This document shows, one piece after another, positions 7,129-30,986 of a stretch of 32,000 nucleotides of DNA (position 1 is its first letter; every line of letters starts with the position of its first letter). Made by a program: the position numbers and the translations under genes. Below the pieces are notes generated by a model. The model saw nothing but the letters and a program-made list of their open reading frames with translations, was not told the DNA's origin and searched no databases. The DNA is from Promethearchaeum syntrophicum (GTDB lineage: Archaea > Asgardarchaeota > Lokiarchaeia > Sigyniarchaeales > Promethearchaeaceae). Where the stretch lies: contig NZ_CP042905.2 of the NCBI RefSeq assembly GCF_008000775.2, positions 4,080,001 through 4,112,000 on the forward strand, in the 5' to 3' direction.

Positions 7129-7263
7129 TCATTTTTTTACTTCAAGATTAAAAATATCGACAATATTCTTATTACTAAAACCAAGTAGCTATAATTTTCA
7201 ATAGAATTTTAAATTTCATCGCACAATTAATAACCCGTAAATAATCCATTATTAAAAGAACAA

Positions 7264-7629: not shown

Positions 7630-7661
7630 CCGAGATAATGCAAATATTTTGGAACTCCTAT

Positions 7662-10610: not shown

Positions 10611-11366
10611 TTAATATCCATAAACCACCGTACTATGTTCTGCGTTTCCCACTTTATCCAGTAAATCTCGATCCGAAATTTGCTCCCCATCTTCCACACT
10701 ATAAGCTCTTGCTTTGGTCTTTCTTTTTCTTAAGGTGTCTAATAATTCTAAAGCTTCAAATTCTGATAAAAATCCAATATAAAAATCATCCCCGTTTTTC
10801 TGAGTTTTTAATTCAAAAAATGAATTTGGAAAAGTATCTACAACCCAATTTTTAAATCCTTTCATATTATTGAATTTCTCCTCAAAATAAACTTCTATTG
10901 CTTCAAAATCTGCCCCACTACCAGAATATATATGTTCTACTCGTTCATAGAGATGGAGTGATCTATCTTCTGTTATTGGGAGGTAATCTTCATCTCTATC
11001 TCCGTATACCATTAATTTTAAGATATAACTACCATATTCTTGTCCTAATTCTTTATTCAGGTTTTTGTCTCCATTTAAATATTTCGATGGAACATTCTCT
11101 TGGGAAAATCTAACATAAATAAATAATCGTATTTTATTCTTATCCCAATCATCGTCTTTTTCAAATATTTTTTCAATCCCGAACCTTAAATCTTCAAAGT
11201 TCTTAAACCCATATTTAGCAAAGAATGAATTCACATCTTCAGGAATTTTCCTTTCTGAAAGAAAATATGCATTGATAAGATCTCGATTAGATTCTGTAGT
11301 AATTAAACAGATCAAAGCTTGAATTTCAAATTTTGAGTCGGTAATTAATTCATTATTATTGTTCAT
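10611..11366 (-). CDS. Hypothetical protein, 251 aa
   Basis: Uninterrupted ORF 75 nt downstream of the 343-aa gene on the same strand. The protein is acidic with no recognisable motif. Confidence 0.6.
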   Translation of the reverse strand: MNNNNELITDSKFEIQALICLITTESNRDLINAYFLSERKIPEDVNSFFAKYGFKNFEDLRFGIEKIFEKDDDWDKNKIRLFIYVRFSQENVPSKYLNGDKNLNKELGQEYGSYILKLMVYGDRDEDYLPITEDRSLHLYERVEHIYSGSGADFEAIEVYFEEKFNNMKGFKNWVVDTFPNSFFELKTQKNGDDFYIGFLSEFEALELLDTLRKRKTKARAYSVEDGEQISDRDLLDKVGNAEHSTVVYGY

Positions 11367-15191: not shown

Positions 15192-15202
15192 GATTTTACT
15201 CA

Positions 15203-15212
15203 TTTTTTTTTT
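15203..15212 (+). terminator. Oligo-T tract (T10) 12 nt after the stop codon; possible archaeal-type terminator
   Basis: tgagattttactcaTTTTTTTTTTaac immediately follows the stop at 15189-15191. T-runs are common in AT-rich DNA, so this is weak evidence. Confidence 0.3.
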
Positions 15213-15347
15213 AACTAAGGTCACCTAGGGGTCAGGTTTTTTACCTTCATCTTTTTAACTATTCAGATCAAAAATTACACAATTAACTTTAAACGTTTTT
15301 GACAAATATATAATAAATAAGTAAATATAAGAAAGGATAAAAAAATT

Positions 15348-16640
15348 ATGAGTGATGATACACCAAGATATTGGTTTTCATATAAAGGGCGTATTCTGGA
15401 AGCGATCACGCTAAATGGAGAAAAAACTTGGGAAGAATTACAAGAATTTACTGGATTTTCTCCTACAATCTTAAATAAAATTTTGTCCGAGCTTTATTCA
15501 TTGAAAATTCTATCAAAAACAGAAAATGACACTTATCGAATCAGTTATGAAGTATTTTTAGAATATAGAGATTATTTAAAAGAATTAGACAATACGGTCT
15601 CAATTTCTCAAAATAGAGAATTTGTAGTAGACTCAGAAATCGACGATAATGAACAAAAACTTGAGAAGATGTTTGAAGGCAAATTAAACCAATTTAATAT
15701 TTTCTTAAATCAAAAAATAAACGAATTTCAAAGTAAAATGAAAGCAATGGAGAAAGAAATGAATGAAGAAAAACCGATAAATGATGCTACGGGCAAAAAT
15801 ATCATAATAAATTCACTTATTGATTCTCAACTTGGAAAATGGATGATAATTAGGAGATTAGGAGAAGGCGGACAAGCAATTACGTTTATTACTATTGATG
15901 TTGGAGATGCAGAGAAAAAAGAATATGTAATGAAATTTTTTATTCATCGAGAAGATCTTGATCAAGACATGAAGAGATTCAAAAAAGAAATTAAGGCATT
16001 AGAAATGTCAACTGGTCATGAAAATATCGTAGAAATTATTGATTCTCATTTTGGGAGACCAGAAGTAGATTTATATTATATAATGGAAAAATGCGATAAT
16101 GATCTGAAACAGCAAATAAAGAATATGAACGGGTCTAATTATTTATTCAAAATTTTTGATTTCTATTTAGATATAATCAAAGCTGTTGATTTTTTACATT
16201 CCGCAGATATAATCCACCGAGATTTGAAACCAGCGAACATTTTAATAAAGGATAATAAAATCAAAGTGGGGGATTTTGGTATATGTTTTATCCCTGGAAC
16301 TGATCGTGACACCTTCACTAATGAACAAGTTGGACCGAAATTTTATTGCGCTCCTGAATTACTAAATAAACGGGCAGAAAAGATTAGTTTTAAAGCAGAT
16401 TATTATTCATTAGGAAAAATTTTATATTATTTATTATCAGATGGTGAAAATCTTGACGCAGAATACTACGATTTGCCTAATTATAGTTTATCCAAGAAAT
16501 ATAACAATTCTAAATATGATTATTTCAATGAATTCTTCAAAAAAACAATTAATGCCCACATAGAAGAACGATATAGCACTATTGATGAACTAGTTAATGG
16601 ATTTCATAGATGTAAAAACAATTTTCTAAATCCGGAATAA
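15348..16640 (+). CDS. Ser/Thr protein kinase (Hanks-type) with an N-terminal winged-helix-like domain
   Basis: Gly-rich loop LGEGGQAITF, VAIK-like EYVMKF, catalytic loop IIHRDLKPANILI, DFG (VGDFGIC) and APE (YCAPELL). The N-terminal ~75 aa (WEELQEFTGFSPTILNKILSELYSLKILSKTENDTYRISYE) look like a wHTH, followed by a coiled-coil linker. Confidence 0.9.
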   Translation: MSDDTPRYWFSYKGRILEAITLNGEKTWEELQEFTGFSPTILNKILSELYSLKILSKTENDTYRISYEVFLEYRDYLKELDNTVSISQNREFVVDSEIDDNEQKLEKMFEGKLNQFNIFLNQKINEFQSKMKAMEKEMNEEKPINDATGKNIIINSLIDSQLGKWMIIRRLGEGGQAITFITIDVGDAEKKEYVMKFFIHREDLDQDMKRFKKEIKALEMSTGHENIVEIIDSHFGRPEVDLYYIMEKCDNDLKQQIKNMNGSNYLFKIFDFYLDIIKAVDFLHSADIIHRDLKPANILIKDNKIKVGDFGICFIPGTDRDTFTNEQVGPKFYCAPELLNKRAEKISFKADYYSLGKILYYLLSDGENLDAEYYDLPNYSLSKKYNNSKYDYFNEFFKKTINAHIEERYSTIDELVNGFHRCKNNFLNPE

Positions 16641-16685
16641 ATCAAAATTCAATGGTTATAGGAAATTCGAAAATCTGGAAATATT

Positions 16686-16744
16686 CCAGAATGAAATGAT
16701 AAATCTGCATATTTTTAACTCAAAATTTCGGAATTGAAATGATA
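16686..16744 (+). repeat. Two further copies of the inter-module repeat, lying between convergent gene ends
   Basis: ccagaatgaaatgataaatctgcat at 16686-16710 nearly matches cagaatgagatgataaatctgca at 10493-10516. cggaattgaaatgata is at 16729-16744. Confidence 0.7.
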
Positions 16745-16940
16745 TTATTATTAATTAAGAACTCTATATCTAATTAAGATGCAAGAAGATAAAACATTTG
16801 AGAACGCTTGCAAAGATTTATGGAAAGAAATTAGAGATTAAGAATAGATATTTAAAAAAGGATCGAGAATTAATCCAAATTTTAGTATATGGAATGATAT
16901 TATTAAAATTTCCAAAAAGTGAATAATTAGGATTAATAAA

Positions 16941-18608
16941 TCATAGTGAAATTTGTTTAATACCAGACTGGGCAAAAATATCATAAATTTCTTTGATTCT
17001 ATTAATAGATTGTAGTGAATCTTCTCTCTTATCACAATTAGTAAAATAAATTTTTGATTTTGCTCTTGATAAAGCAACAAAAAAGGTACACAATTCAGAA
17101 AAACGATTTCTTTGATAACTAAAAAAAGCATTATCTTCTAAGCCAATAAATATTACTACTTCAAATTCCAAACCCTTACATTTATGAACAGTCATTATTG
17201 GAATAATATCTTTTCCCAAGAGAGATTCTAATGATTTACTCCAATCTTTCTGTATTTGATATTGTTGCCAAAAATAAAAGTTAAATTTATCGATAACTTG
17301 TTTAAGATAATTTCTACTTAAATATTGTGGATATATTGTTGATAACTCAGCAAATCCAAAAATATTGATTAAAGGTCTATATATTTTTGAGAGATCTTGT
17401 ATAGTTTCAATCCTTAAAAATTTTTTTTGTAAAGCTTTTGATAAATTATAGATTATCAAATTTAATTTTTGATATCTTCCTAATTTAGTATCTTCGTTGA
17501 AACCTTTAATATAGATAAGTAAGTTGTAAATATTATTCCAATCTTCTATGGATTGCTCTTTCAAAGATAAACGAATGAAACTAACAACTAATTTTATTAT
17601 TGGTTCACTTAAAAATTCCTGATAAATATTTTCAAAACGTGCAGGTATTCCAAGAATATCAAGTTTCTGGATGATTTTTCCCCTATAAATATCAATTTTA
17701 TTGCGAGTATCCTTTCGACGATAGATAATGCATATTTGTTCTGGAGATATTCCCTTGTCAATATGCTTTTTTATTTCCAAGGCAATTATCTCAGCTTCCC
17801 TTTCTGAATTTGTAAAATGAAAAATTTTACAATCTCCCTCATCATTTTTTTGATATTCTGCTCTAATTTTTATATTTGGATCTAACTTTTCAGCAAAGAA
17901 ACTCTGAATATATTGTAGTTTTTTCTTAGATCGGTAGTTGATTAATAATGGAATTCTTTTTGCCCCAAAATCTCGTTCAAATTTATCAAATATTTTTTTT
18001 TCTGCTCCTGCAAATATCATAATTGTTTGTTTAATATCCCCAACAGCAGTCAATATTGTGGATGATCCCATAAAAGATTCCTTAATAAAGTTATATTGCG
18101 TTGCAGTTGTATCTTGAAATTCATCAAGTAGAACATATTTGTAAGTTTGTTTAATTGCATTATGGAGATGTTTATTATTTTTTATTAACCAAGTGGCTAA
18201 ATTTTGGATACGTTTAAAACTAAGAATATTTTTATTGTTATTCAATAAATTTTTTTTTTTGTCCTGAATTTTATAATTTTTAATTGGTCTGATATCTTCG
18301 GGTAAAGCTAACCTAAATCTATCCAAAATACCTTTTGTAAATGCATCTATTGTTAATGAATCAAATCTAGAAATTAACTCGATACCACATCTTAGTAAAG
18401 CTCTATATTCTAAATTTGTTGCAGAATCGCGTTTAAAAGAAATTGCTAAAATACGATATGGGAAAGGGCATGATTTAGTTTGTAATAAGAAAGAAACTCT
18501 TTGAGCAAGTATCTCTGTTTTTCCAGATCCTGGACCAGCTAATACACTAATATTTTCATTGCTTTTCACAATTTCTAAAGCATTAGAAACCAAGACCATT
18601 TTATCCAT
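16941..18608 (-). CDS. gajB: Gabija GajB, UvrD/PcrA-like SF1 helicase
   Basis: Walker A VLAGPGSGKTE, motif II VLLDEFQDT, C-terminal TVHKCKGLEFEVV and ALSRAKSK. It sits 34 nt downstream of an OLD-family gene, which is the Gabija gene order. Confidence 0.8.
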   Translation of the reverse strand: MDKMVLVSNALEIVKSNENISVLAGPGSGKTEILAQRVSFLLQTKSCPFPYRILAISFKRDSATNLEYRALLRCGIELISRFDSLTIDAFTKGILDRFRLALPEDIRPIKNYKIQDKKKNLLNNNKNILSFKRIQNLATWLIKNNKHLHNAIKQTYKYVLLDEFQDTTATQYNFIKESFMGSSTILTAVGDIKQTIMIFAGAEKKIFDKFERDFGAKRIPLLINYRSKKKLQYIQSFFAEKLDPNIKIRAEYQKNDEGDCKIFHFTNSEREAEIIALEIKKHIDKGISPEQICIIYRRKDTRNKIDIYRGKIIQKLDILGIPARFENIYQEFLSEPIIKLVVSFIRLSLKEQSIEDWNNIYNLLIYIKGFNEDTKLGRYQKLNLIIYNLSKALQKKFLRIETIQDLSKIYRPLINIFGFAELSTIYPQYLSRNYLKQVIDKFNFYFWQQYQIQKDWSKSLESLLGKDIIPIMTVHKCKGLEFEVVIFIGLEDNAFFSYQRNRFSELCTFFVALSRAKSKIYFTNCDKREDSLQSINRIKEIYDIFAQSGIKQISL

Positions 18609-18642: not shown

Positions 18643-20622
18643 CTACTCCTCCAGAAGATTTTTACTTTTTTGAATTATTTCCTTTAGTATTGGAGAAATA
18701 TTTTGATTAAGTTGTTCATTTGAAATTTCACTCAAGAAGAGATAATGGATCAGTGGTTTATTATTGTTAAAGAGATATTTATGCCAAGCTAACAACTCTC
18801 CTTTTTCAGAAAACACACTTTCATTTAAAATAAAATCATCTTTGAAAGGAGTTTTAACATAATGTTCAAGTTGATCTTCATAATCTGGTTCCTCAATGTG
18901 TCTTAGTACATTGGGACCTCGCCCTTTTAATAATTTATATTGTTCTAAAAAAGATTCAATCATTAAAAAATCAAAATCAAGAGGGTATGAGAAAAAAATA
19001 TTTTTCCTTTCAAGTTGATTTCTGAAAATATCATCTGTAATATCTATTGAGTCAATAATTTGATCAATATTTGATAAATTTATATCATATTCTCCAATTT
19101 GGAAATTTGGATTAATTTCTAATAATTCTTTGCATATATATTTTAAAGGATTTTGGATTTTTTTATATATATCAAAATCGAGTAGAGTTATATGTGGAAT
19201 CATCAAATCATTGAGTAATTTCCAAAAATAATTAACAAATTTACCTCCTAATGGTATTATCGAAATGTAATGATTGTCAATTAAAATATCTTCAACCTGA
19301 AATAATCGGGGAAATACAATTTTCTCACTATCACCTTCAACTAATATAATTAATTTAGAGAAATACATTTCTGGAAAGAATTGAACTCCTTGTTTTACAA
19401 ATTTAAATGCCTCGTCACTTTCTGAGGGTAATAATATCTTCCTTATAGATGTTGTATTTGTTGTTAAATCTAATCGAAAATGCCTTATTGTTTCTGGATT
19501 AATTCTTTTAAGAATTGAAGGTGAATGCGAAGTAATTAATATTTGAGCGATCTCTAATTTTGATGTTTCTTGCAAGTTTTGAATGGTTTTTCCAAGCAAA
19601 TGAGGTGCTAAATGATTCTCAGGTTCTTCGATTGCTACTATCGTGAGATAAGGTGGTGTATAATTAGTATCAGAGAATAAATCTTCTGCCTCGTTCAATA
19701 TTTTACTTTCGATCTCTAATAAGGAACAAACTAAGGATATGTAGAATAGTGATTTCATTCCATCACTAATTTGTTCAATATCATAATTAATTTCATCTGG
19801 ACTAGGTTTAAATGATATCTCAATTTTTTTTAAAATATCATCTAGTTTCCCTGTAGCAAAACTGAAATTTGTATTGGAGAAATATTTAATATCATTATAT
19901 TTTTTCCATTCTTGATTAATAATTTCTTCTATTTTTCCTATTCCTTGATTCTCAACTATTTTTCCATTTAAAACTTTCATTTCATCTATAATTGATTTTT
20001 TCAAACTTTCACTCCATTTTAAATATCGGAATAATCTCCATATTATTGTTCCAGTTGAATTTTTTATCTGGTTTGAAGGACTTCTCAATGCTGGAACATA
20101 TATCATTTGAATAATCCCCAATTCTTTCATCTTAACCCAATTTGTAGTTTCAGATTGTTGTTCCATTTCTGGTGTTTTAATATAGCGATAAATCTGGGTG
20201 ATATTACCTTCAATATTCATATTACGCTCCCAAACTGCTTCTAATCTTATTCGAAAATATGGTGGTGAATTATCATCACGAATTATTAATTGGTTGAAAT
20301 AGGCAGCTTTAGCCTTTTTTTGAGATTCTTCTAAATCAATTTCAGGAAATTCTATAAATACTTCAATACTCAGTCTTAATTCATCAAAATCTTCGAAATT
20401 TTTACCTCTAGGAATATGAAAATCCGCTTTATGAATTTGTCGAAGAGATTGAGTAATACCAAAAATTTTTTGTAATGCAAGGAGCATTGCTGTCTTACCA
20501 GAGTTATTAGCACCGATTAGCACCGTACTATTATCTAATGATGTTTCAATGCCTTCAGGTCCAAAACTTTGGAAATTTTTTATAATTATTTTTGTAATTT
20601 TCATTTCAAAATCTTTCTCCAA
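18643..20622 (-). CDS. gajA: Gabija GajA, OLD-family ABC-type ATPase plus TOPRIM nuclease
   Basis: N-terminus MKITKIIIKNFQSFG ... LIGANNSGKTAMLLAL (Walker A). ISDGMKSLFY is signature-like. Walker B region VAIEEPENHLAPH and H-loop ITSHSP. TOPRIM LIILVEGDSEKIVFP. The track start at 20622 is a TTG. The ATG at 20604 (MKITKI), preceded by GGAG, is the more likely start. Confidence 0.85.
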   Translation of the reverse strand: MEKDFEMKITKIIIKNFQSFGPEGIETSLDNSTVLIGANNSGKTAMLLALQKIFGITQSLRQIHKADFHIPRGKNFEDFDELRLSIEVFIEFPEIDLEESQKKAKAAYFNQLIIRDDNSPPYFRIRLEAVWERNMNIEGNITQIYRYIKTPEMEQQSETTNWVKMKELGIIQMIYVPALRSPSNQIKNSTGTIIWRLFRYLKWSESLKKSIIDEMKVLNGKIVENQGIGKIEEIINQEWKKYNDIKYFSNTNFSFATGKLDDILKKIEISFKPSPDEINYDIEQISDGMKSLFYISLVCSLLEIESKILNEAEDLFSDTNYTPPYLTIVAIEEPENHLAPHLLGKTIQNLQETSKLEIAQILITSHSPSILKRINPETIRHFRLDLTTNTTSIRKILLPSESDEAFKFVKQGVQFFPEMYFSKLIILVEGDSEKIVFPRLFQVEDILIDNHYISIIPLGGKFVNYFWKLLNDLMIPHITLLDFDIYKKIQNPLKYICKELLEINPNFQIGEYDINLSNIDQIIDSIDITDDIFRNQLERKNIFFSYPLDFDFLMIESFLEQYKLLKGRGPNVLRHIEEPDYEDQLEHYVKTPFKDDFILNESVFSEKGELLAWHKYLFNNNKPLIHYLFLSEISNEQLNQNISPILKEIIQKSKNLLEE

Positions 20623-21491: not shown

Positions 21492-22358
21492 TTATGTCAT
21501 TTCATGTTTAAGTTGCTTGAAATAATCTCCATTCCTAGACATGTAATGATTATAGGAAAAATTAATTAACTTTAATCCTTCTTTTAATCCATTTGATAAA
21601 ATAGGTGCACTATATTTCAACTCATTTTTATAATTTTGAATAAATCGCCCATCAGGTGAGATAATACAATATGATTGATTTAAAATGTTCTCATTTTCAA
21701 ATATTGGATTCAATCCTTTATGATATTGTAAGAAAAAATCAATTTGGGTTTCAGATGGAACTTGAGATTGCTTGAAAAATTGATTATTAATTGATGGAAT
21801 TTGATGAACTATCAAAATTTTCCATCTCACAGGTTTTAATAGTGTTATGAGTGAATAAAAATCATCATTCCAGTTGATAGAAGTTAAAACGGTATTAATT
21901 TTTAAAGGAATATTAAAAGATTTAATTAATTTATTGGCTTTTTCTATTGTTTCTAAATGGGAATATCTTCCATTTTTACTATGATTTAAGGTTCTACCTA
22001 AAATTAATTCCTTTTTTTCACATGGGGAATCTAAACTTAGCCCTATTAAATCCATATCTTTATGACAATCATTGAGAAATTTCTTTTTTATACCAGTTCC
22101 GTTTGAAATGATTGAAGTGAAAATTCCATAGTTTTTGGTATGTTGGATTAAATTGCTCAAATATGGAATTAATGTAGGTTCACCACCAGCAAAATTTAGT
22201 TTCATACATCCTCCTTCAGCAAGCATATCAATGATTTTCATCCATTGAGACTCATTTAATTCACTTCCGAGTGATCTATTCCGAGCAAAACAAAATTTAC
22301 ATCGATAATTACATCGATTGGTGATGTGCAAATTAACGGATTCAATTTTATTTTCCAT
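21492..22358 (-). CDS. Prokaryotic viperin (pVip), radical SAM enzyme
   Basis: It aligns by eye along its whole length with human viperin: SVNLHITNRCNYRCKFCF vs SVNYHFTRQCNYKCGFCF; KLNFAGGEPTL vs KINFSGGEPFL; SIISNGT vs SIVSNGS; LKPVRWKIL vs LNPVRWKVF; QSYCIISPDGRF vs DSYLILDEYMRF; SRNGDY vs KRGGKY. Confidence 0.9.
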   Translation of the reverse strand: MENKIESVNLHITNRCNYRCKFCFARNRSLGSELNESQWMKIIDMLAEGGCMKLNFAGGEPTLIPYLSNLIQHTKNYGIFTSIISNGTGIKKKFLNDCHKDMDLIGLSLDSPCEKKELILGRTLNHSKNGRYSHLETIEKANKLIKSFNIPLKINTVLTSINWNDDFYSLITLLKPVRWKILIVHQIPSINNQFFKQSQVPSETQIDFFLQYHKGLNPIFENENILNQSYCIISPDGRFIQNYKNELKYSAPILSNGLKEGLKLINFSYNHYMSRNGDYFKQLKHEMT

Positions 22359-22360
22359 AT

Positions 22361-22834
22361 CTAAACCTTTCCAGTTATTAAATCATTATATTGCGATTGA
22401 AAATCTTGCAAGTATTGTGCATTTTCTTGAAATTGAAAATCTTCTTCTATATTTTGTGTAAAAAATAGATTATGATCAATGATCATAAATCCAATGCGAT
22501 GGTTTTTTAACCAATTTTTTGATATAAATGAATATTCCCTGAATAAATCATTAGAAATTATCAAACATTGAAGCTCAGTGGCACATTTCAAAATAAAAAC
22601 ATCCGCAGCTACACCTGCTGGAGCTTCAAAAATTAATTTGGAAACTAAATATTCGGTTTTATATCTTTTTCGATCGTCTATTTGATGATATAACGAATTA
22701 TCGGCGATTCCGATAATTTCATAATCTTTTGGAATTGAATTGAATAAAATATCAATGTATCCAATTTTAGGCTTCCCATTTCTTTTGTTGAAACAGGCAA
22801 TATTAGAGATATCACATACAATAATTTTTTTCAT
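22361..22834 (-). CDS. NYN / Zc3h12a-like (PIN-fold) ribonuclease domain protein
   Basis: KKIIVCDISNIAC (compare VVIDGSNVA), AADVFILKCATE (compare YDDRFIVKLA) and LIISNDLFREY (compare IVVSNDTYRDL) place acidic residues where the Zc3h12a NYN catalytic residues lie. Its stop is 2 nt from the viperin start. Confidence 0.6.
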   Translation of the reverse strand: MKKIIVCDISNIACFNKRNGKPKIGYIDILFNSIPKDYEIIGIADNSLYHQIDDRKRYKTEYLVSKLIFEAPAGVAADVFILKCATELQCLIISNDLFREYSFISKNWLKNHRIGFMIIDHNLFFTQNIEEDFQFQENAQYLQDFQSQYNDLITGKV

Positions 22835-22941
22835 TTTTTTTTAACACCTTTGAATTTAGTTCAAATAGATCTTTTCTTGGGGATATACATATCACGAGAT
22901 TTTTAAATGAGATATAGAAAAAAGAGAACTCTTTTCAGAGT

Positions 22942-23085
22942 TTATTTCTTATTTGATTGATTTTTGGATGCTGCACTCATCGATCGACTTTTAAACCCTT
23001 GATCTCCTTTTGAGCCTTTTCGATCTTGACTTGATTGGATTCGGCGTGCAGCATTATTATTCATCTTGTTAGATTTTTTTCCCAT
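22942..23085 (-). CDS. Small basic hydrophilic protein, 47 aa (not in the supplied ORF track)
   Basis: Hand translation gives MGKKSNKMNNNAARRIQSSQDRKGSKGDQGFKSRSMSAASKNQSNKK. The ATG at 23085 is preceded by GGTGGTGA 5 nt upstream (acaGGTGGTGAaatcATG), a strong SD-like site. Confidence 0.4.
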   Translation of the reverse strand: MGKKSNKMNNNAARRIQSSQDRKGSKGDQGFKSRSMSAASKNQSNKK

Positions 23086-23263
23086 GATTTCACCACCTGT
23101 GTATTCATTATGGAGAATAAAGAAATAATAATATTAAAGAGAACTCTACGATAGTATAATACATTCTTTTACTAATTCTGATAAACATGTATTGAGTAAA
23201 AAAACAAAGAATTATAAAAAAAATAGGCTGACCTTTTCAAAACACAAATTGCTTGCTATTCCC

Positions 23264-24022
23264 TTATGTTCTGATTAAATAATTTGCGAGAATAGTACCC
23301 ATTCGCGTTAAGCGCAATTCAAAAGCTCGATTATCTTCAACATTATGGGATCGAATTAGCAATTTATGCTTTTCAAGTTTTTTTACATGATAACTTAGAT
23401 TTTGCCCTTTCATTTTCGTGGTTTTACTATCTCGCCAATATTTTCTCCATTTTGGCTCATTTATTTCAACGGCTAATTCACTTTGATTCAAAATTTCAGG
23501 TTTTTTTTTATTTTTCATATTACTATTTAGAACAAATAAAATAACTTTCTGAACGTTTGTAATATCCGATATTGGCACAGATGGCATTTCAATATCAATG
23601 AATGTATTCCTTTCATTAAGATTATGGTTAAATTTATCGGGTGCTTTAATATATTGAATACGTGCGCCAATAAGGTTGGCTCCCATAAATGCACCAAGGG
23701 ACATAACTTTCGTTCCCCCTGTAACATTTACAATAAAATCAACCTTTAGATCTTTATGAAGACTATGAATTTCCAGAACAGAGTTAAGAACACTCTCATA
23801 ATCAAAAGGATCTATTATTAAATAATTTACGGTATCTTTAGGAAAAAAAAAATGAGATTCAATCTCTGACTTTATAGTAGATTCATATTTCTCCGTTAAA
23901 AAATAGAATTTATAAATGCGATCTAAACGAATTCCACGAAGTGCAGCAATAATAGGATCGAGATTTGCTCTTTTTTCCTTTTTATTGATACCAAGAGTTG
24001 AAATATAAACTATTTTTTCCAT
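23264..24022 (-). CDS. csa3: Csa3-like transcriptional regulator (N-terminal CARF/Rossmann-like domain plus C-terminal wHTH)
   Basis: The N-terminal strand IVYISTLG and the CARF-type loop FIVNVTGGTKVMSLGAFMGANLIG are present. The C-terminal QNLSYHVKKLEKHKLLIRSHNVEDNRAFELRLTRMG is MarR/wHTH-like. It is divergent from the CARF-helicase-PLD operon across a 73-bp spacer. Confidence 0.65.
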   Translation of the reverse strand: MEKIVYISTLGINKKEKRANLDPIIAALRGIRLDRIYKFYFLTEKYESTIKSEIESHFFFPKDTVNYLIIDPFDYESVLNSVLEIHSLHKDLKVDFIVNVTGGTKVMSLGAFMGANLIGARIQYIKAPDKFNHNLNERNTFIDIEMPSVPISDITNVQKVILFVLNSNMKNKKKPEILNQSELAVEINEPKWRKYWRDSKTTKMKGQNLSYHVKKLEKHKLLIRSHNVEDNRAFELRLTRMGTILANYLIRT

Positions 24023-24095
24023 AAATTAATCAAGTTATTTCTTTTACAATCAAATAAAAACTTTAAGTATTTATTAATTATAATTATGAAATAGA

Positions 24096-24725
24096 GTGAA
24101 TCATGATCAAGAAAACAGGATTTTCTTTGAAAGTTCGATTTCAATGGGGGTATTTTTAACGTCTGTGCAAATTTTAGTCGTAGGGAGATCTCACGCTCAT
24201 ATCTTGAAAGTATTGAAACTAAAACACCCAGATAAAGTCATTTTGATTGTATCAAAAAAATTGAAAGATCAAAATGAAGAATTATACCTAAACTTGAAAA
24301 AAAAACAAAACAATTTGGAAATTATTCATGTGAACCCATTTCACCGTGATTTTTTACCTCAAATGATAACTCATTATATTCATATTTACCAAAAACTAAA
24401 GGTAGTTAATCCTAGTGCAGAGGTCCAAATTGGTTTAACAGGAGGGACGAACCTCATGGCTATCGCAGCAGGGATCTCTGCTATGTTATTAGGTATTGAA
24501 GCACATTATTTTGTTAAAGGGAAAGTAAAGCCATTGATATGGAATTTGAAAAATGATTTAGCAGATTTTATACTATCTAATTCTTCAAATTTTTATTTCC
24601 TTCAAACAGAAGATAATACAAGAGATAAAAATAAAATGTCAAAACTTAATTCTGAATATTCCTCTGAAGGAAAGGAGAAATCATTATTGAATTTTCAAGA
24701 AGAAAAAAGAGGGAGGACAATTTAA
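24096..24725 (+). CDS. Stand-alone CARF-like (Csa3 N-domain-like) protein
   Basis: VQILVVGRSHAHILKVL ... DKVILIVS ... VQIGLTGGTNLMAIAAGISAMLLG mirrors the strand and GGT(K/N)-loop layout of the neighbouring Csa3-like N-domain. The track start is a GTG, with an alternative in-frame ATG at 24144. The stop overlaps the helicase start (TAATG at 24723-24727). Confidence 0.5.
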   Translation: MNHDQENRIFFESSISMGVFLTSVQILVVGRSHAHILKVLKLKHPDKVILIVSKKLKDQNEELYLNLKKKQNNLEIIHVNPFHRDFLPQMITHYIHIYQKLKVVNPSAEVQIGLTGGTNLMAIAAGISAMLLGIEAHYFVKGKVKPLIWNLKNDLADFILSNSSNFYFLQTEDNTRDKNKMSKLNSEYSSEGKEKSLLNFQEEKRGRTI

Positions 24726-27385
24726 TGTCAAGCCATTTATTTTATGAAAATTTGCCTGAAATAGATAATATGAGCCAATTTCGGAGAGATGTTTATTACA
24801 AATTATTGGATTTCATAAATTATTTAAATACTGCAAAATATGCTCGAAAAAAACATTCAGTAAAAATTAACTATCATGTGATGACTCCCCAAGAAGTTCA
24901 ACAAATGTTTCAAGATCTAAATTATCGCTATTATGAGATCTATGGTTATGAGATGAATTTTGGAGAAGAAAGTTTAAATGAAAACTTAAGTCATAATTAT
25001 CCTAAAAATGACCAATCAGAGGGTGTTTATGTTAAAATTTTTGATGAAACAAATCGCGCTGATGAAAATCTCTTTGAAGATTTTCTCAAATCGCAATCCG
25101 TAGTAGATCATGAAACGGACCATTATATAGAAGAAGAACAGATAAATGTAATTAATAAGTATCCTCTCTTCAACGTGATTCAATTAGAACGAGAACCAAA
25201 TGCAGACTCACCCTATCTATATATCACACCAAACATCTACATCTTAAATACTCAACTTTACTCTATATATAACCTGCAAGCAAAACCTCGAAGAGCACAT
25301 CGCCCAATACTTAGACTTTTTGAACAAAAAGAGAATTCTTCATGGCCATCTGTATCAGATATAAATCCTATTCAGAGATGGTATTTCCTGGATAATAATG
25401 AATTCCCAGGAAACTCGGTTCAACAAGATTTTGTAAGAAAGGCACTTAATTCTCCCGATTTTGCCATATTGGAAGGTCCCCCTGGTTCTGGAAAAACAAA
25501 AACAATTTGTGAACTCGTAATTCAAGCAATAGAAGCGGGACAGAGAGTTTTATTATGTGCATCAACTCACGTAGCTGTAGATAATGTTCTTGAAAAATTA
25601 ATGGATCGAGATGAAGTGATTGCTGTTAGGATTGGAAAAAAATCAAATAAAAGAATTTCTCCATCAGTGAAAAAATACCTTTTAAGCGAAAGAACCCGAA
25701 CTGAAAAGGAGCGTTTAATTGAAAAATTAACAGAATTAGATAATCAACGGAACTCTGGTCAAGATTATTATTTACACATTCTAAAATCGGATGAGGGAGA
25801 ATCGGAGATTCAACGAATGATCTTAGACAATGCCAACCTTGTATGTGGCACTATGTTAGGGATCTTAAAACATCCAGATATCGAGGAAGAGCGAAATTCA
25901 CCACAAGCGGTATTTGATATGCTCATTATAGATGAAGCGAGTAAAACAACATTCCAAGAATTTATTGTACCTGCCTTATTTTGTAAAAAATGGATTCTCG
26001 TTGGAGATCCAAAACAACTCTCTCCATTTGTTGACGATATGGAGGTCCGCAAATCTATTGATGGTTTTCTCCCAGAAATACATCAAATAATTTGTAAGGA
26101 TTGTTTTTGCTGTTGGAAGCATGAAGATTTTAATTTAATTGTAGCAGAGGTTGATGAGCATATAAGAGATCTCTATAAGCGGCAATTAGATACCTTGGAA
26201 TTAGAATATATTGATCTTGATTCTTTAGGTGCTTTGGAAGAATTATCAAATTGGATAATATTAGGTGCTCAAATTATCATTGGGAGTCCAGAACAAGTTC
26301 AATCCATTGCTAATATCTTACCCAATGATGCCTTTTTACGGGGAACAGGGTTCTCATCTCAAATGGATGCTTCATATGAGTATTGGAAGAAGAATAAACA
26401 GAACCAATTTACCGCAGATCGAACTAAAGGAAATTTTGGTAAATTACTCGCTTGGCGCTTAATCTTGGAATATGGCCTAAGATATGCAGAGAATGATTTA
26501 ATGCGTCAGGAACTGCGAGATGATATGAAAGTTTTAAAACCACTATGGTATGAAGATGAATCATTGTTAGAAAAATTTGATAAAAATCTAAGCAATATGA
26601 AAAAAGTAGCATTTCCTTCAGTTCTTGAGTTATTAAAAGAAGGATTTTACGAAAATAGAAATGATAGAGACTCTTGGCATACTGTTATTAAAAATGGATT
26701 TGATGAATCCGACCTTATACCCCGCTATGAAAAACTCCGCTATAATCACAGAATGCATTCTCAGATATCAGAATTTCCCAGAGTTAAAATATATGAAAAC
26801 GATGCTTTGATAGATAACCCTAATATTGACCGTATTAGGAAATGGACATATCCTCATTATTCACGCCGTTCTTTATGGATTAGTGTTCTTGAGCGTAACG
26901 ATAATAGAACCAATATCAATTTTCCTGAAACTCAAGTTATTTTAGAAGAATTAGAATTATTTCTTGAATGGTCCCAATTTAATCCAAATCTTGACCATCC
27001 TCAAAGATTCTGGGAAGTTGCGGTACTCACTTTTTATAGTAATCAAGAAGATCTGTTAACTAACTTGATCACCAGAAAATACGGAATTCGTAGAGGGATA
27101 AATGAATTTATTCTCCGTCCATATAATGTCAAAATTACTATATGCACCGGAGATAGGTTTCAAGGCCATGAAGCGGATGTAGTGTTTATATCTTTCGTAA
27201 AAACGACCAGCATTGGATTCCTAAATTCAATAAATAGGTTAAATGTTGGAATCACACGGCCGCGTTATCAATTAGTAATGATTGGTAATAAAAAGTTTTT
27301 TTTAGATCAAAGAATTTCCCCAATCCTCCACAATTTGGCTCAAATTGAAGGTAATATATCTTTAGAAACAAGACAAAGAAAATAA
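24725..27385 (+). CDS. Upf1/DNA2-like SF1B helicase (AAA_11/AAA_12 type, COG1112-like) with a ~240-aa N-terminal domain of unknown function
   Basis: Walker A ILEGPPGSGKTKT, motif II LIIDEASKTT, III LVGDPKQLSP, YNHRMHSQISEFP, DRFQGHEADVVFISFV and NRLNVGITRPRYQLVMIG. Confidence 0.9.
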   Translation: MSSHLFYENLPEIDNMSQFRRDVYYKLLDFINYLNTAKYARKKHSVKINYHVMTPQEVQQMFQDLNYRYYEIYGYEMNFGEESLNENLSHNYPKNDQSEGVYVKIFDETNRADENLFEDFLKSQSVVDHETDHYIEEEQINVINKYPLFNVIQLEREPNADSPYLYITPNIYILNTQLYSIYNLQAKPRRAHRPILRLFEQKENSSWPSVSDINPIQRWYFLDNNEFPGNSVQQDFVRKALNSPDFAILEGPPGSGKTKTICELVIQAIEAGQRVLLCASTHVAVDNVLEKLMDRDEVIAVRIGKKSNKRISPSVKKYLLSERTRTEKERLIEKLTELDNQRNSGQDYYLHILKSDEGESEIQRMILDNANLVCGTMLGILKHPDIEEERNSPQAVFDMLIIDEASKTTFQEFIVPALFCKKWILVGDPKQLSPFVDDMEVRKSIDGFLPEIHQIICKDCFCCWKHEDFNLIVAEVDEHIRDLYKRQLDTLELEYIDLDSLGALEELSNWIILGAQIIIGSPEQVQSIANILPNDAFLRGTGFSSQMDASYEYWKKNKQNQFTADRTKGNFGKLLAWRLILEYGLRYAENDLMRQELRDDMKVLKPLWYEDESLLEKFDKNLSNMKKVAFPSVLELLKEGFYENRNDRDSWHTVIKNGFDESDLIPRYEKLRYNHRMHSQISEFPRVKIYENDALIDNPNIDRIRKWTYPHYSRRSLWISVLERNDNRTNINFPETQVILEELELFLEWSQFNPNLDHPQRFWEVAVLTFYSNQEDLLTNLITRKYGIRRGINEFILRPYNVKITICTGDRFQGHEADVVFISFVKTTSIGFLNSINRLNVGITRPRYQLVMIGNKKFFLDQRISPILHNLAQIEGNISLETRQRK

Positions 27386-27402
27386 AAGATGGAATAAAAA
27401 AA

Positions 27403-28563
27403 ATGGAAATTGAACTAAGTAGAAGAATTGAAGTCCAAAAATATAAAGTTATTTTGGATATTGGTATTAAACAACCTCGAACAGATATTATAGCAGTACT
27501 TAAAATTGCTTCTCACTACGGAAATCAAATTAACGAAAATATTATTTGTAACGAATTTATTTTTCGGAATAGCACCACTATTGCTCAGCGAATTCTCAAA
27601 CGGTGCCAAGATTTTGGTGTCTTAGATGAGAATAACCGATTAACTGAAGATGGATTAAATGCTCTTTCCGATGAAAGAATTTATCATCCAAAAACAGGAG
27701 TTTATCATATCTGGATTACTCAAGATCCATTAATCCCTAAAAAATTGTTGAATTTGGAGTTAATTGATGAACAAATAAATTTCAGAAATGAATTTAACGC
27801 AGAAAATCCTCGTAGAGGGAGAACAGACCTTAACCAATCAAACCCAGAAAATTCATTAGAACCGTCAAACATCATAGATCTCCCAGAATGGATCTTAGAG
27901 ATTACTCGAGAATCAAATATTATTCTCTACGATGAAATTCAGCGGGAAGTTAGAATCGAATCGATTGAAGAAAAGGTGGAATCTTTATCAGAATATGAAG
28001 AATTACATGTAAAAGTTCGCATCAATGATTCTGGGTGTTCAATAACCCTAGATGGGCTATTCCACAATACTCGCACCATTTCCGAATTTCCTGTATTTAG
28101 AATTGTATGGAATGAATTGATGGGGGAGAATATTAGGAATTGGAATTGGGATAATTTTAAATTTGCAAAACATTTTGAAGGGTTGAATGAAACGGAAAAA
28201 AAGACATTTCTAACACAAATTCATTTTGAAAACCCCTCAATTACGGGATATGGGGCGTTTGATCCAATATCAATGCAAAGGATAAAAGTTGAGCCATTTA
28301 ATCATGATGAAGCAGTAATATGGGCAAATTGGTTATTTAAACAAGATATTACTAAATATTTATTCATTAAAACATATAATGAACTAAAGAGAAGCATCCA
28401 AGCAAAGTTTCCAAAATTCACTATTGAATTTCCTACTAGAGAAGATTTTAGAACAGATCTTGAAGATCTTCAAGAACAAAAGGAAATCCCAGATGTTTTT
28501 TGGTATTCAAATGCACCCTTAGATTTGATTCCAATTAATACAAGCATAGAGGAGGAAAATTAA
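27403..28563 (+). CDS. Hypothetical protein, 386 aa, possibly with an N-terminal wHTH
   Basis: ORF lying between the helicase and PLD genes, with an 18-nt gap upstream and a 1-nt gap downstream. TIAQRILKRCQDFGVLDENNRLTEDG is wHTH-like. The rest is unrecognised. Confidence 0.6.
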   Translation: MEIELSRRIEVQKYKVILDIGIKQPRTDIIAVLKIASHYGNQINENIICNEFIFRNSTTIAQRILKRCQDFGVLDENNRLTEDGLNALSDERIYHPKTGVYHIWITQDPLIPKKLLNLELIDEQINFRNEFNAENPRRGRTDLNQSNPENSLEPSNIIDLPEWILEITRESNIILYDEIQREVRIESIEEKVESLSEYEELHVKVRINDSGCSITLDGLFHNTRTISEFPVFRIVWNELMGENIRNWNWDNFKFAKHFEGLNETEKKTFLTQIHFENPSITGYGAFDPISMQRIKVEPFNHDEAVIWANWLFKQDITKYLFIKTYNELKRSIQAKFPKFTIEFPTREDFRTDLEDLQEQKEIPDVFWYSNAPLDLIPINTSIEEEN

Positions 28564-28564
28564 G

Positions 28565-30121
28565 ATGTCAAAAAAAAAATCAGTAAAAGAACAATACCCC
28601 ATTGTTGAAAAATCTAAAAATCTACAGAATTCTGGTATTTTGCCCAATATTTGGGAGTTTCCAAAGAAAGAGAATTTTTCAGAAAGCTATAAGGAGTTTT
28701 ATTCTCCTGATTTGTGGTTTATTGGAAAAAAACGGGAATTTGAACATGCAATTGCTAAAGCAATTAGAAAAGCGAATGAATTGGTAATTATTTGTTCATT
28801 TCTCCTACAGGAGACAGAAATAATTAAAGCAGCACTTTCAGTATGCTCAAAAGCCAAGATTTATATCATAACTGCATCGGAAAATCGATTAAATTCTGCT
28901 AATCGTTCTGATGAAGGATTAGAAGAGGAAAAAATAAAAGATCACTTAGAACTCCTTCAAAAACTAAAGAAAAGAGCATTAATTCGCACAGCATCAAATT
29001 TTCACGCAAAATTTGTATTAATTGATCCAAAACATAAAAATCAACGAAAGGGCTTTCTCTCGACTGCCAATTTAACACAACACGCATTGGCAAATAATGT
29101 CGAAATGGGAATAGGTTTAAATAGTGGACAAATAATAGATTTATTTAACCTCTTTTGCTCGGTTTTTTGGCATAAAAGTGAACATGAGCTGCTTACCCGT
29201 TCTCAATTACAGGTAACTCAATCCGTGCCCGTTCAAGAAATACCAGAACAAGTCATTTTGCAGCATATTATTTCCCCTGGCACAAATTTAGATTTTAAAT
29301 CTATGCTTAAGAAAACTATATCGGGTATCGAGGGAGATATATATCTCTCAGCCTATTCCATTGAAGAAAACAATGATATCTATACTCTTCTTCTTCAAGA
29401 ATTAGAACAAAATCCTAAAAGGAAGATCTCACTTTTCATCCGACCCCGAGAGAAGGTTATGCCTGTGCTTGCAAAGTTAAAAGATGCAGGGGCAGAAATT
29501 ATCGGGCACTCTTTACTTCATATGAAAGCTTTATTAATTGAAAATCCAGCAGAAAATTCTGGTCTTGTATTCACTGGAAATTTAACTGAACAGAGTTTTT
29601 CCGAGAGTTTTGATATTGGTCTCTTTTTAAATTCAAACCAGAAACAAATAATCATGTCTATATTGAAATCATGGAAATCCAAATATATGATGAATTACCT
29701 TGGCGATAAACCAATACATAATATGGCAGCAAGGAGATATCAAATTTGGAATCCAGACAAAATGAAAATTGATGTAAAAGAACAAGAAGTAGAAGATTTA
29801 GGTGATATTGATGGGGAAAATCTAGATAATTACAAAAATTTTGAGCCAGCTTTGAATTTTCCTCAAAAATATCAGGAGACTGTGAAAAATATCAAATTTA
29901 TTTGGAGAAATAATCCCCCTCATTTACCTTCTAAAGCACAAGCCTTGGAAATTTTACCTGAGAAGGAGTTTAAGCGATTGCCAGAAAAACTCCACAAAAC
30001 AATAGAACAAATAAAAATCTATAAGTTGGGAAATGAAATATATATAAGATTAGAAAATAATGAAGATCTGAATCTAATTAAAGAGATTTCGCATATTATT
30101 AATGCTAAAATTGTTATTTAA
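28565..30121 (+). CDS. Phospholipase-D superfamily nuclease with two HKD motifs
   Basis: HKD 1: FHAKFVLIDPKHKNQRKGFLSTANLT (HxKxxxxD ... GxxN). HKD 2: LLHMKALLIENPAENSGLVFTGNLT (HxKxxxxE ... GN). GGAGG lies 8 nt upstream of the ATG. Confidence 0.85.
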   Translation: MSKKKSVKEQYPIVEKSKNLQNSGILPNIWEFPKKENFSESYKEFYSPDLWFIGKKREFEHAIAKAIRKANELVIICSFLLQETEIIKAALSVCSKAKIYIITASENRLNSANRSDEGLEEEKIKDHLELLQKLKKRALIRTASNFHAKFVLIDPKHKNQRKGFLSTANLTQHALANNVEMGIGLNSGQIIDLFNLFCSVFWHKSEHELLTRSQLQVTQSVPVQEIPEQVILQHIISPGTNLDFKSMLKKTISGIEGDIYLSAYSIEENNDIYTLLLQELEQNPKRKISLFIRPREKVMPVLAKLKDAGAEIIGHSLLHMKALLIENPAENSGLVFTGNLTEQSFSESFDIGLFLNSNQKQIIMSILKSWKSKYMMNYLGDKPIHNMAARRYQIWNPDKMKIDVKEQEVEDLGDIDGENLDNYKNFEPALNFPQKYQETVKNIKFIWRNNPPHLPSKAQALEILPEKEFKRLPEKLHKTIEQIKIYKLGNEIYIRLENNEDLNLIKEISHIINAKIVI

Positions 30122-30209
30122 TATATAATAATCTAAACTTCCATGAAAAATGACTGGTCAAATTCAACATCAATTCCTTTATTACGATAATTATCTTTAA
30201 TTTATTTAA

Positions 30210-30986
30210 ATGACACTTATTGATGAGTATGCAAATCAGATATTTCCGCTTATCAGGAAATGCAAGAAATGTCGTAGGTTACGATTAAGGAATTTACCTC
30301 ATGAGTGTGCTTTGATTGGACAGAATTATGAACATTCACCAATCCGGTTATTGATTATTGGAAAGGCTCCAAATGCAGATAATGACACAAGAGAAGCTAG
30401 AGCAAATAATGAACTTCCTAAGGAATATTCTTCATATTCTCAATTTTTAACAGTAGAAGGTCTTCGATTTTCTGAATATGAACCTCTACACCATGCAGAT
30501 CACTACTGCACAATTTCAAATATTCTTTCCCAAATAACCAATCAATCTCCTCAATTTTCATTTACCATGGACAATATCACCTTTACAAATCTTACACATT
30601 GCTATAACAAAAGTAAAAAGAGGTGGAATGATCAAACTCAGGTAAAAAAAATGATCAAAAAGTGTAAACTGCACTTCTATCATGAATTCGAATTACTTAA
30701 ACCTCAATTAGTCATTGGCTTAGGCGAAGAAGCTAGAGAGTGTTTTATAAAACTGGGAAAAAACGAAAGCAATCATTTACTCACGATAGAATATCATGAA
30801 AAAATAAGAAATGCAGATTACTATTACACCCTTGATAACACGAGAAAATCATGCTTGTTTATGTCGTTTTACCATCCTTCTTATTTATCAACATATGGTC
30901 GTAATAAAAGAGCTGATTATCGGGCAGAATTTGACCAAAAAATATCTGTAATCGTTAATTTTCTTCGAAGAACTTCAACAAGATAA
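30210..30986 (+). CDS. Uracil-DNA-glycosylase superfamily protein, family-4-like with divergent motif A
   Basis: CKKCRRL plus later THC and KKC cysteines match the family-4 4Fe-4S pattern. LLIIGKAPNADND sits where family 4 has GE(G/A)PG. ITFTNLTHC ... LKPQLVIGLGEEA, and motif B MSFYHPSYLSTYGRN (compare FHPAYLLRN). Confidence 0.6.
   Translation: MTLIDEYANQIFPLIRKCKKCRRLRLRNLPHECALIGQNYEHSPIRLLIIGKAPNADNDTREARANNELPKEYSSYSQFLTVEGLRFSEYEPLHHADHYCTISNILSQITNQSPQFSFTMDNITFTNLTHCYNKSKKRWNDQTQVKKMIKKCKLHFYHEFELLKPQLVIGLGEEARECFIKLGKNESNHLLTIEYHEKIRNADYYYTLDNTRKSCLFMSFYHPSYLSTYGRNKRADYRAEFDQKISVIVNFLRRTSTR

Follow-up and report, generated by a model that had tools for sequence, protein, structure and literature searches.

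Background

Mokosh systems were defined by Millman et al. (2022) as a COG1112 helicase together with a nuclease of the phospholipase D (PLD) family; in type I the helicase is fused to a kinase and the nuclease, MkoB, is a separate protein, while type II is a fusion. In the CoCoNuT systems (Bell et al., eLife 2024), a UPF1-like helicase, CnuH, is followed by CnuE, a nuclease with an elongated winged helix-turn-helix (wHTH) domain, which in type III-C has two PLD domains. The same study found RtcR-like CARF-AAA+-HTH (helix-turn-helix) regulators attached to CoCoNuTs, and predicted RNA targeting and signal-induced transcription for them (Bell et al., eLife 2024). Here we analysed a stretch of 32,000 nt (hereafter the window) of the genome of Promethearchaeum syntrophicum MK-D1, a cultured Asgard archaeon. 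It carries adjacent genes for a UPF1-like helicase, a 386-aa protein that we call X and a two-HKD PLD nuclease, together with genes for two CARF proteins, a ribonuclease and a prokaryotic viperin (pVip). The helicase-X-PLD trio is conserved and tightly coupled across archaea and bacteria, and we propose, at a probability of about 0.6, that the locus is an inducible antiviral module with a core formed by a UPF1-like 5'-3' superfamily 1B (SF1B) helicase, X and the two-HKD PLD protein.

Conservation of the helicase-X-PLD trio

Related loci were gathered via homologues of X and of the helicase, a genome scan, a metagenome scan (motif-selected alignment subset) and three bacterial plasmids. All were annotated uniformly with local hidden Markov models (HMMs), and lineages were defined by less than 80% identity of X (n = 23). 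The helicase gene was found directly upstream of X in 22/22 lineages with that flank visible, and the PLD gene directly downstream in all 22 lineages in which the other flank is visible, with junctions mostly of -11 to +18 nt. The hosts include Promethearchaeum, a 'Heimdallarchaeota' metagenome-assembled genome (MAG), Helarchaeota, Methanolobus, Treponema, Haliotispira, Vibrio and Pontibrevibacter; at three loci the trio is on a bacterial plasmid. An initial annotation of this DNA, made from the sequence alone, had described X as a conserved-looking extra gene; conserved it is, but rather than an add-on it is an obligatory core gene, in bacteria as well.

Comparison with the MAG of another Promethearchaeum sp. 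(locus L014) revealed 97.3% nucleotide identity over exactly 24699-30174 of the window (1747-7214 of L014), that is, over the trio. To the left of it, identity falls to ~37-49% at the protein level for both CARF genes, and to the right the two loci are unrelated. Since the 97.3% block spans exactly the trio while the flanks differ, the trio forms a discrete unit that can be exchanged; the mosaic suggests either a recent exchange of the effector block or a fast turnover of the sensors.

A deviating form of the trio was seen on the chromosome of Haliotispira prima (L019, 10925-12457), where X is split into ORFs (open reading frames) of 251 and 134 aa and an extra 113-aa Cys-rich DUF5832-like protein is encoded between the split X and the PLD. 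Either this copy is decaying or the architecture is a variant one.

Organisation of the locus in P. syntrophicum

The cassette extends over 21492-30121 of the window and contains the following features:

21492..22358, minus strand: prokaryotic viperin (pVip, radical SAM), 288 aa, accessory effector of the module (PADLOC and NCBIfam)
22361..22834, minus strand: NYN (PIN-like) ribonuclease, 157 aa (Pfam RNase_Zc3h12a); pVip follows 2 nt downstream on the same strand
23264..24022, minus strand: Csa3-like CARF-wHTH transcription regulator, 252 aa (PADLOC and Pfam profiles)
24023..24095, no strand: divergent intergenic region, 73 bp, AT-rich (direct reading); putative promoter and operator
24096..24725, plus strand: stand-alone CARF protein (CARF209), 209 aa, GTG start (PADLOC profiles)
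24725..27385, plus strand: UPF1-like SF1B helicase, 886 aa (AAA_11/AAA_12 and PADLOC MkoA)
27403..28563, plus strand: protein X, 386 aa, in no curated family (AlphaFold2 model)
28565..30121, plus strand: two-HKD PLD-family nuclease, 518 aa (PLDc_2 in two stretches); proposed effector

The initial annotation had placed the start of the module at 23264. This was too narrow, for the conserved repertoire begins at 21492: the pVip and NYN genes (21492-22834) are counted in the cassette because the same repertoire recurs beside the trio in relatives. The coordinates given there for five ORFs were reproduced exactly by the ORF list, and its description of the junctions was accurate in all respects but one. 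The TAATG overlap of the CARF209 and helicase genes (24723-24727) is present, with GGGAGG ahead of it; the PLD gene begins after a gap of 1 nt with GAGGAGG upstream; and the regulator is divergently transcribed across an intergenic region (24023-24095) of 73 bp. The sole correction to these observations concerns the gap between the helicase gene and X, which is 17 nt (27386-27402) and not 18 nt. The 73-bp region presumably holds both promoters and the operator of the regulator; it contains only imperfect AT-rich palindromes, which are uninformative in such AT-rich DNA. A sigma-70 promoter/terminator scan, irrelevant for an archaeon, returned 49 sites versus 51 in shuffled sequence. On the minus strand, the CARF-wHTH gene is separated from the NYN-pVip pair by 429 bp, within which there is a strongly basic ORF of 47 aa (MGKKSNKMNNNAARRIQSSQDRKG..., 22942-23085, minus strand) with GGTGGTGA upstream; it could be a small protein or mere spacer.

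The helicase and the PLD nuclease

The 886-aa protein matched AAA_11 (2e-39) and AAA_12 (4e-29) of Pfam, and the motifs GPPGSGKT, DEAS, GDPKQL, FQGHEAD and GITRPR can all be read from its translation. Its nearest solved structures are those of SMUBP-2, UPF1, DNA2 and SEN1, the first two at ~1e-24. The PADLOC profile MkoA (PDLC03920) was matched at 4.3e-76, at model positions 558-1083 of 1112 only, so that the kinase part is missing; no domain was assigned to the N-terminal ~225 aa, and residues 1-225 have no Pkinase match. The AAA_11, AAA_12, MkoA and UPF1/SMUBP-2 matches bear out the earlier assignment as an SF1B, Upf1-like helicase with all motifs. An exact-protein look-up of the helicase returned no record. 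The NCBIfam family 'PLuB system helicase-like' was considered and rejected, as the match reached 115 bits against a cut-off of 999 and covered the N-terminal RecA part only.

In the 518-aa protein, PLDc_2 was matched in two stretches (1.5e-13), and the HxK...N motifs are located at residues 147-169 and 319-339. Both HKD motifs are intact, as first described, and among 20 non-redundant members of the family there is no variation at H147/K149/D154/N169 or H319/K321/N339. The top PADLOC match is DrmC (1.4e-13); against the MkoB profile the window protein gave no match at E<=1, and the PLD proteins of related loci gave weak ones (1.5e-8 and 2.7e-11). The full set of helicase motifs and the invariant HKD residues suggest that both proteins would be catalytically competent.

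Comparison with Mokosh, CoCoNuT and piRNA proteins

The locus shares with Mokosh type I a UPF1-like/COG1112 helicase and a PLD nuclease encoded in defence islands. It differs in that the helicase has no Ser/Thr kinase domain, the PLD protein lies outside the MkoB family, a third, obligatory gene (X, unrelated to MkoB) stands between the helicase and PLD genes of what is there a two-gene system, and CARF regulators are attached. As a control we used the true Mokosh type I pair of Clostridium botulinum pCB111, in which MkoA covers model positions 14-1108 including the kinase and MkoB is matched at 7e-48. A reading of the locus as Mokosh with extras therefore does not apply, as it has no Ser/Thr kinase domain, no MkoB match at E<=1 and X as obligatory core. 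Mokosh type II (MkoC) has the same helicase and PLD domain content, but the window has separate genes, and the MkoC model matches segments of the helicase only (2e-18) and nothing in the PLD protein. Judged by its proteins, the locus appears to be Mokosh-like in working but is no member of Mokosh, failing three defining features. According to a PADLOC-based preprint, P. syntrophicum has pVip, Gabija and 'Mokosh type II'; the type II call may refer to the present locus or to another.

By analogy, the CoCoNuT CnuH-CnuE modules with RtcR-like regulators appear to be the closest concept. In type III-C, too, a helicase is followed by an elongated wHTH and a two-PLD nuclease, with RtcR-like CARF regulators, an analogy of architecture. 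Unlike CoCoNuTs, the trio loci contain no McrB-like GTPase (CnuB) or McrC (CnuC), the McrBC of the Treponema locus (L017) being a separate unit on the opposite strand; X is encoded apart from PLD and has, beyond its wHTH, another ~290 residues of no known fold. In archaea, moreover, CoCoNuTs are reported to be nearly absent, whereas the trio is common in Asgard archaea, with Csa3-like regulators, and an association with pVip is unreported for CoCoNuTs.

The initial annotation had also pointed to MOV10L1 and Zucchini/PLD6 of the eukaryotic PIWI-interacting RNA (piRNA) pathway, a parallel said to matter if the host were an archaeon close to eukaryotes; the host is indeed an Asgard archaeon. The pairing of a UPF1-like helicase with an HKD nuclease holds at the level of domains. 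Beyond this the parallel is weak: the nearest solved relatives of the helicase are SMUBP-2 and UPF1, not MOV10, and the family is mobile and found on bacterial plasmids. Zucchini/PLD6 is a single-HKD homodimer, whereas the window PLD carries both of its HKD motifs on a single chain. The MOV10L1/PLD6 parallel has already been published for Mokosh, and the published MkoA phylogeny suggests a bacterial origin. The suspicion that the architecture had not been described before was upheld by the literature, in which we found neither a description of the cassette nor any paper that connects CARF with Mokosh or viperin.

Protein X

Protein X is identical to DSAG12_00312 of P. syntrophicum, and no Pfam, NCBIfam or PADLOC family matched it. 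A word-index search gave four relatives (five proteins in all), as if X were rare, whereas an exhaustive profile HMM search yielded 636 cluster representatives for the family; nearly all of these are full length, and 383 have E<=1e-10. Nothing was found in a scan of viral contigs for X. An AlphaFold2 model from a 124-sequence alignment reached a predicted local distance difference test (pLDDT) score of 92 and a predicted template modelling (pTM) score of 0.83; an earlier model from five sequences was poor (pLDDT 61) and was not used. The model has a winged helix at about residues 25-90 with flanking long beta strands (hence 'elongated'), followed by a beta-rich and then an alpha/beta domain. 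In a Foldseek search of PDB and BFVD, the wHTH alone was matched (MarR/DtxR/LexA-like, E>0.1), and no known relatives of the beta-rich and alpha/beta domains were found. One PDB match (9r2l, 'N37', E 0.0035) was discarded as a K/E-rich low-complexity alignment. Residues W307 and W367 are invariant in the family and W247, F286, F336, D108, D374 and G84 are at least 90% conserved, so that the conserved residues are mostly aromatic.

We considered X as a split N-terminus of MkoB and rejected this: hhalign gave a probability of 0.7% for the 124-sequence X profile against verified MkoB, and only a wHTH-like stretch was aligned.

CARF proteins and their link to the trio

The 252-aa protein matched the PADLOC CARF3 profile PDLC01866 over its full length (3.3e-22), the PADLOC Csa3 profile (3.8e-12) and Pfam CARF_Card1 (34.8 bits, above the cut-off of 24.6), and its C-terminus is a MarR-type HTH (MarR_2 at residues 200-233). 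It is a member of the Csa3-like/CARF3 family but no Csa3 equivalog, because its NCBIfam Csa3 (TIGR01884) score of 19 bits is under the cut-off of 60.2. CARF209 matched PADLOC CARF3 profile PDLC01879 at 1.6e-38 (model positions 2-191 of 222) as well as 40 further CARF models, with Pfam CARF_Card1 (21.1 bits versus 24.6) and HFX_2341_N both under their cut-offs, and ends in a hydrophilic tail of ~60 aa. The initial annotation had called both small proteins CARF on the strength of a GGT(N/K)-type loop. This has stood: the first passes in PADLOC and Pfam, the second in PADLOC though not in Pfam, and the translations contain TGGT(K/N) signature loops, NVTGGTKVMSL in the 252-aa protein and GLTGGTNLMAI in CARF209.

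Across the lineages, CARF calls were confirmed with curated PADLOC profiles, and divergent forms by hhalign. The initial annotation had set beforehand, as the test of its proposal, whether helicase homologues are accompanied by the CARF, X and PLD genes. They are: a CARF gene was found within ~5 kb of the trio in 18/23 lineages, and of the remaining five, four have no informative flanks and one, Treponema (L017), is a clear negative. In the archaeal-type loci the regulator is a CARF-wHTH (Csa3-like) protein, for which PDLC01866 is the top model in the window and in L001, L014, L018, L020, L023 and L024 (E-values 1e-20 to 1e-50); L010 and L013 have a divergent CARF-wHTH homologue (hhalign probability 94.8%). 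In proteobacterial-type loci the gene of a CARF-AAA+-HTH sigma-54 activator overlaps or abuts the PLD gene, and its product matches PADLOC RtcR_PspF1 over the full length at 6e-207. Because two unrelated CARF-regulator architectures serve the same trio, we argue for signal-dependent transcription as a design common to archaeal and bacterial trio loci. A stand-alone CARF is not conserved: L014 has a 173-aa counterpart of CARF209 (CARF3, 1.7e-14), but L020, L023 and L018 carry only the transcription-factor CARF, and bacterial loci only the RtcR-like regulator.

The archaeal proteins resemble the Csa3/CARF3 regulators and CARF-PIN effectors of CRISPR-Cas in their CARF Rossmann fold with wHTH and TGGTK loop, and in the CARF_m1 and PIN proteins of the relatives; unlike them, they have no cas gene or CRISPR array near the module, and the NCBIfam Csa3 match is below cut-off. 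The bacterial trio versions recall RtcR-RtcAB in ending with a CARF-AAA+-HTH sigma-54 activator with RtcR as top NCBIfam match. The scores of 190-196 bits are, however, far from the equivalog cut-off of 650, RtcA/RtcB genes are absent nearby, and the archaeal trio uses another CARF regulator.

Viperin, ribonucleases and other accessory genes

The 288-aa protein was identified as pVip by PADLOC (1.4e-67) and by NCBIfam viperin_w_prok (233.4 bits, above the cut-off of 180), and pVip was found beside the trio in five lineages. In three Asgard lineages (L001, L003/4 and L011/12) it opens the helicase operon, pVip-helicase-X-PLD, which is divergent from genes for a CARF-wHTH protein, for a CARF_m1 protein and for the PIN half of a CARF_m1-PIN. 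In L008 the gene set is identical except that pVip is missing, with all genes on the plus strand (CARF, CARF_m1, PIN, helicase, X, PLD), and in L013 (Helarchaeota, helicase 40% identical) pVip is divergent from regulator-helicase-X-PLD. In the window the repertoire is that of the Asgard relatives, differently arranged: the minus strand carries CARF-wHTH, NYN and pVip, the plus strand CARF209, helicase, X and PLD.

The NYN gene product matched Pfam RNase_Zc3h12a (2.3e-8; 34.4 bits versus a cut-off of 23). In L024 and L025 a homologous NYN gene of 187 aa lies directly upstream of the helicase gene (phmmer 4e-9 and 1e-8). Split CARF_m1 and PIN gene pairs occur in four lineages, and the PADLOC CARF effector models include the fused CARF_m1--CARF_PIN and CARF_PIN. 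The role of the CARF_m1 and PIN pair of other Asgard loci is equivalent to that of the window NYN.

Several related loci carry further genes next to the trio. In L008 the product of the gene after PLD (15267-16367), 366 aa long, has weak matches to RNase III domains and may be a further accessory RNase. In L011, anaerobic ribonucleotide reductase activase, NrdD and a dNK/thymidylate-kinase-like kinase are encoded directly after PLD (15163-17934), a nucleotide-metabolism cluster which could feed or buffer viperin substrates. L020 has two lineage-specific accessory nucleases: a DUF559/Vsr-like endonuclease gene (1473-1883) between the CARF regulator and the helicase, and, after PLD (7256-8203), a gene for a 315-aa protein with a weak restriction-endonuclease-fold match.

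Proposed mechanism and alternative explanations

In the inducible antiviral module that we propose, a nucleotide or RNA signal derived from infection would bind the 252-aa CARF-wHTH protein at the 73-bp divergent promoter. For the TGGTK-loop CARFs of the window the signal would most likely be a cyclic oligoadenylate (cOA) made elsewhere in the genome, which is favoured for archaeal loci because of the canonical TGGTK loops and the CARF and PIN pairs; for the RtcR-like versions it would more likely be RNA ends with 2',3'-cyclic phosphate, favoured because the bacterial regulators are RtcR-like. Binding of the signal would induce both arms, CARF209-helicase-X-PLD on one side and CARF-wHTH with NYN and pVip on the other. 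The helicase would then load on viral RNA or single-stranded replication intermediates, with the winged helix of X bridging it to the PLD protein, which would degrade the strand; in parallel, pVip would make chain-terminating 3'-deoxy-3',4'-didehydro (ddh) nucleotides and the NYN RNase would cut RNA. CARF209, translationally coupled to the helicase, might act as a second sensor, either as an allosteric licence or by degrading or sequestering the signal as a ring-nuclease-type off switch. A bolder version, which we consider speculative and rather improbable, would have the CARF factor sense an infection alarm and co-induce viperin with a helicase-X-PLD RNA-decay machine that preferentially loads on and destroys the ddh-terminated or stalled viral transcripts made by viperin. 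In the closest cultured relative of eukaryotes, this would be a prokaryotic counterpart of an interferon-type state, in which chain termination is coupled with decay of the surveillance type. In a variant of this equally speculative view, the CARF sensors may answer a non-cOA ligand, such as ddh-nucleotides or RNA ends with 2',3'-cyclic phosphate.

Several observations weigh against the proposed module. The conserved residues of X include no catalytic-looking motif, because of which X is read as a putative adaptor or nucleic-acid-binding/sensing subunit between helicase and nuclease and not as an enzyme, and even this role is deduced solely from where it is encoded and from its wHTH. Neither the bacterial loci nor L008 has pVip, on which account we regard it as an accessory gene; nor was it found in L010, whose upstream flank stops at ~2 kb. 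Co-transcription of the CARF-wHTH gene with NYN-pVip is uncertain given the 429-bp gap. CARF control is not obligatory, because L017, with both flanks visible, has the trio without a CARF gene, and the regulators of L010 and L013 have a degenerate TGGT loop. Finally, the initial annotation had seen no cyclase in the window, and this extends to the relatives: no Cas10, CD-NTase or cOA synthase was found in the window or within ~10 kb of any annotated related locus. Its proposal of nucleotide-second-messenger control is thus borne out as regards the CARF linkage, while control by cOA stays conjectural, with no Cas10 or CD-NTase within ~10 kb of the loci examined.

The same data bear on three other explanations. 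It is possible, if unlikely, that the locus is a direct second-messenger effector, in which cOA from a distant type III CRISPR Cas10 would act through CARF209 to switch the helicase and PLD allosterically, with the Csa3-like protein as transcriptional feedback. The canonical TGGT(K/N) loops of both CARFs, the TAATG overlap that couples CARF209 to translation of the helicase, and the split CARF_m1 and PIN pairs in four lineages, with their fused forms among the CARF effector models, would fit such a scheme, and a preprint reports CRISPR arrays as well as CBASS type II in the P. syntrophicum genome. Literature searches on Cas10 or type III systems of P. syntrophicum or Lokiarchaeia gave nothing usable. 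Yet besides the lack of a cyclase, no cas genes occur in the window and neither cas genes nor a CRISPR array within ~10 kb in the annotated related loci; the 120 best helicase and 150 best X homologues include no fusion of CARF to helicase, X or PLD; many loci do without a stand-alone CARF; and between the window and L014 the trio has kept 97% identity, whereas both CARFs have diverged freely. That last contrast, trio shared and neighbours different, can also be taken to mean that pVip (with NYN), the CARF factor and a Mokosh-like system are independent island neighbours, adjacent by chance. The modules are separable, L017 carries the trio alone, the window is packed with unrelated genes (DruE, Gabija, a kinase, a methyltransferase fusion), and the PADLOC-based annotation of the genome lists pVip and Mokosh apart. 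We nevertheless hold chance adjacency to be very improbable, as the repertoire recurs in differing gene orders and orientations around helicases only 40-53% identical, the single CARF3 subfamily PDLC01866 tracks the trio, pVip lies inside the helicase operon in three lineages, and the proteobacterial CARF regulator gene overlaps or abuts that of PLD.

Least probable of all, in our estimate, is a housekeeping or stress regulon for RNA surveillance and repair, in which the CARF regulator would sense damaged RNA and induce a helicase and nuclease to clear it, as in RtcR-RtcAB or UPF1 decay. RtcR as the family that the bacterial regulators match best in NCBIfam (190-196 bits), the UPF1/SMUBP-2-like helicase and the NYN and PIN RNases are in keeping with this view. 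A patchy, horizontally mobile distribution that includes bacterial plasmids is not, and neither are the consistent location of the loci in defence islands, the association of the trio with viperin, or regulators that fall far under the 650-bit RtcR cut-off with no RtcA/RtcB nearby.

Defence island around the module

The 32-kb window is a dense defence island, and defence genes also occur in related loci (McrBC, MmeI, restriction-modification, TIR). No tRNA, Rfam match, tandem array, CRISPR array, cas gene or domain, or nucleotide cyclase was found in the window. Its left end looks like a Druantia-like system, with a DruE-type helicase of 1802 aa (696-6104, plus strand; PADLOC DruE1 6e-127; DEAD, Helicase_C and MrfA Zn-binding domain) and a small ORF at 295-699. 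An 850-aa protein (7662-10214, minus strand) with an HTH and weak matches to N6-methyltransferase and type I specificity subunits may be a fused methyltransferase/specificity enzyme, type IIG-like or MADS-like; the ORFs beside its gene (6193-7128, 10611-11366 and 11442-12473) have no family matches. A tetratricopeptide repeat (TPR) protein (12741-15191, plus strand; PADLOC TPR model 2e-14) is encoded next to a kinase gene and ~6 kb from pVip; according to a survey paper, a viperin+TPR system occurs exclusively in Archaea. The kinase is a stand-alone Ser/Thr kinase with a TFIIE-alpha-like N-terminus, of mad6/PD-T4-6 type (15348-16640, plus strand). We rejected it as a part of the system despite a match to the kinase part of MkoA (3.5e-27): it is 8 kb away, its best match is mad6/PD-T4-6, and no kinase is encoded in the related loci. 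A Gabija pair follows on the minus strand (16941-18608 and 18643-20622; GajB 1e-182), the upstream partner of which, 659 aa with weak OLD/ATPase-type NCBIfam matches (retron Eco8 effector, PtuA), is presumably GajA. Just after PLD, a 258-aa protein of the uracil-DNA glycosylase (UDG) superfamily is encoded at 30210-30986 (plus strand; Pfam UDG 9e-11, family-4 UDG far under the NCBIfam cut-offs). This is probably a separate island gene, and it was left out of the cassette because the 97% block shared with L014 ends before it.

Significance

Helicase-X-PLD is an undescribed, widespread system that PADLOC 2.0, Pfam and NCBIfam cannot call, or at most mislabel as partial Mokosh. The rarity of X, if judged from the fast word-index search alone, would have been badly wrong (5 proteins versus 636 representatives). 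The near-universal pairing of the trio with two unrelated types of CARF factor is among the clearer cases of CARF signalling outside CRISPR loci, and the four-gene Vibrio rumoiensis plasmid operon (NZ_AP018688.1, 512-7340), compact enough for transfer to a model host, offers a tractable route to the question of the ligand. An Asgard ancestry of the piRNA machinery is not supported by the trio alone, because the family is mobile and common to bacteria. The Asgard cassette would put viperin under a sensor-regulator, and so bears on how inducible antiviral programmes of viperin, UPF1-like helicases and HKD nucleases were organised before eukaryotes.

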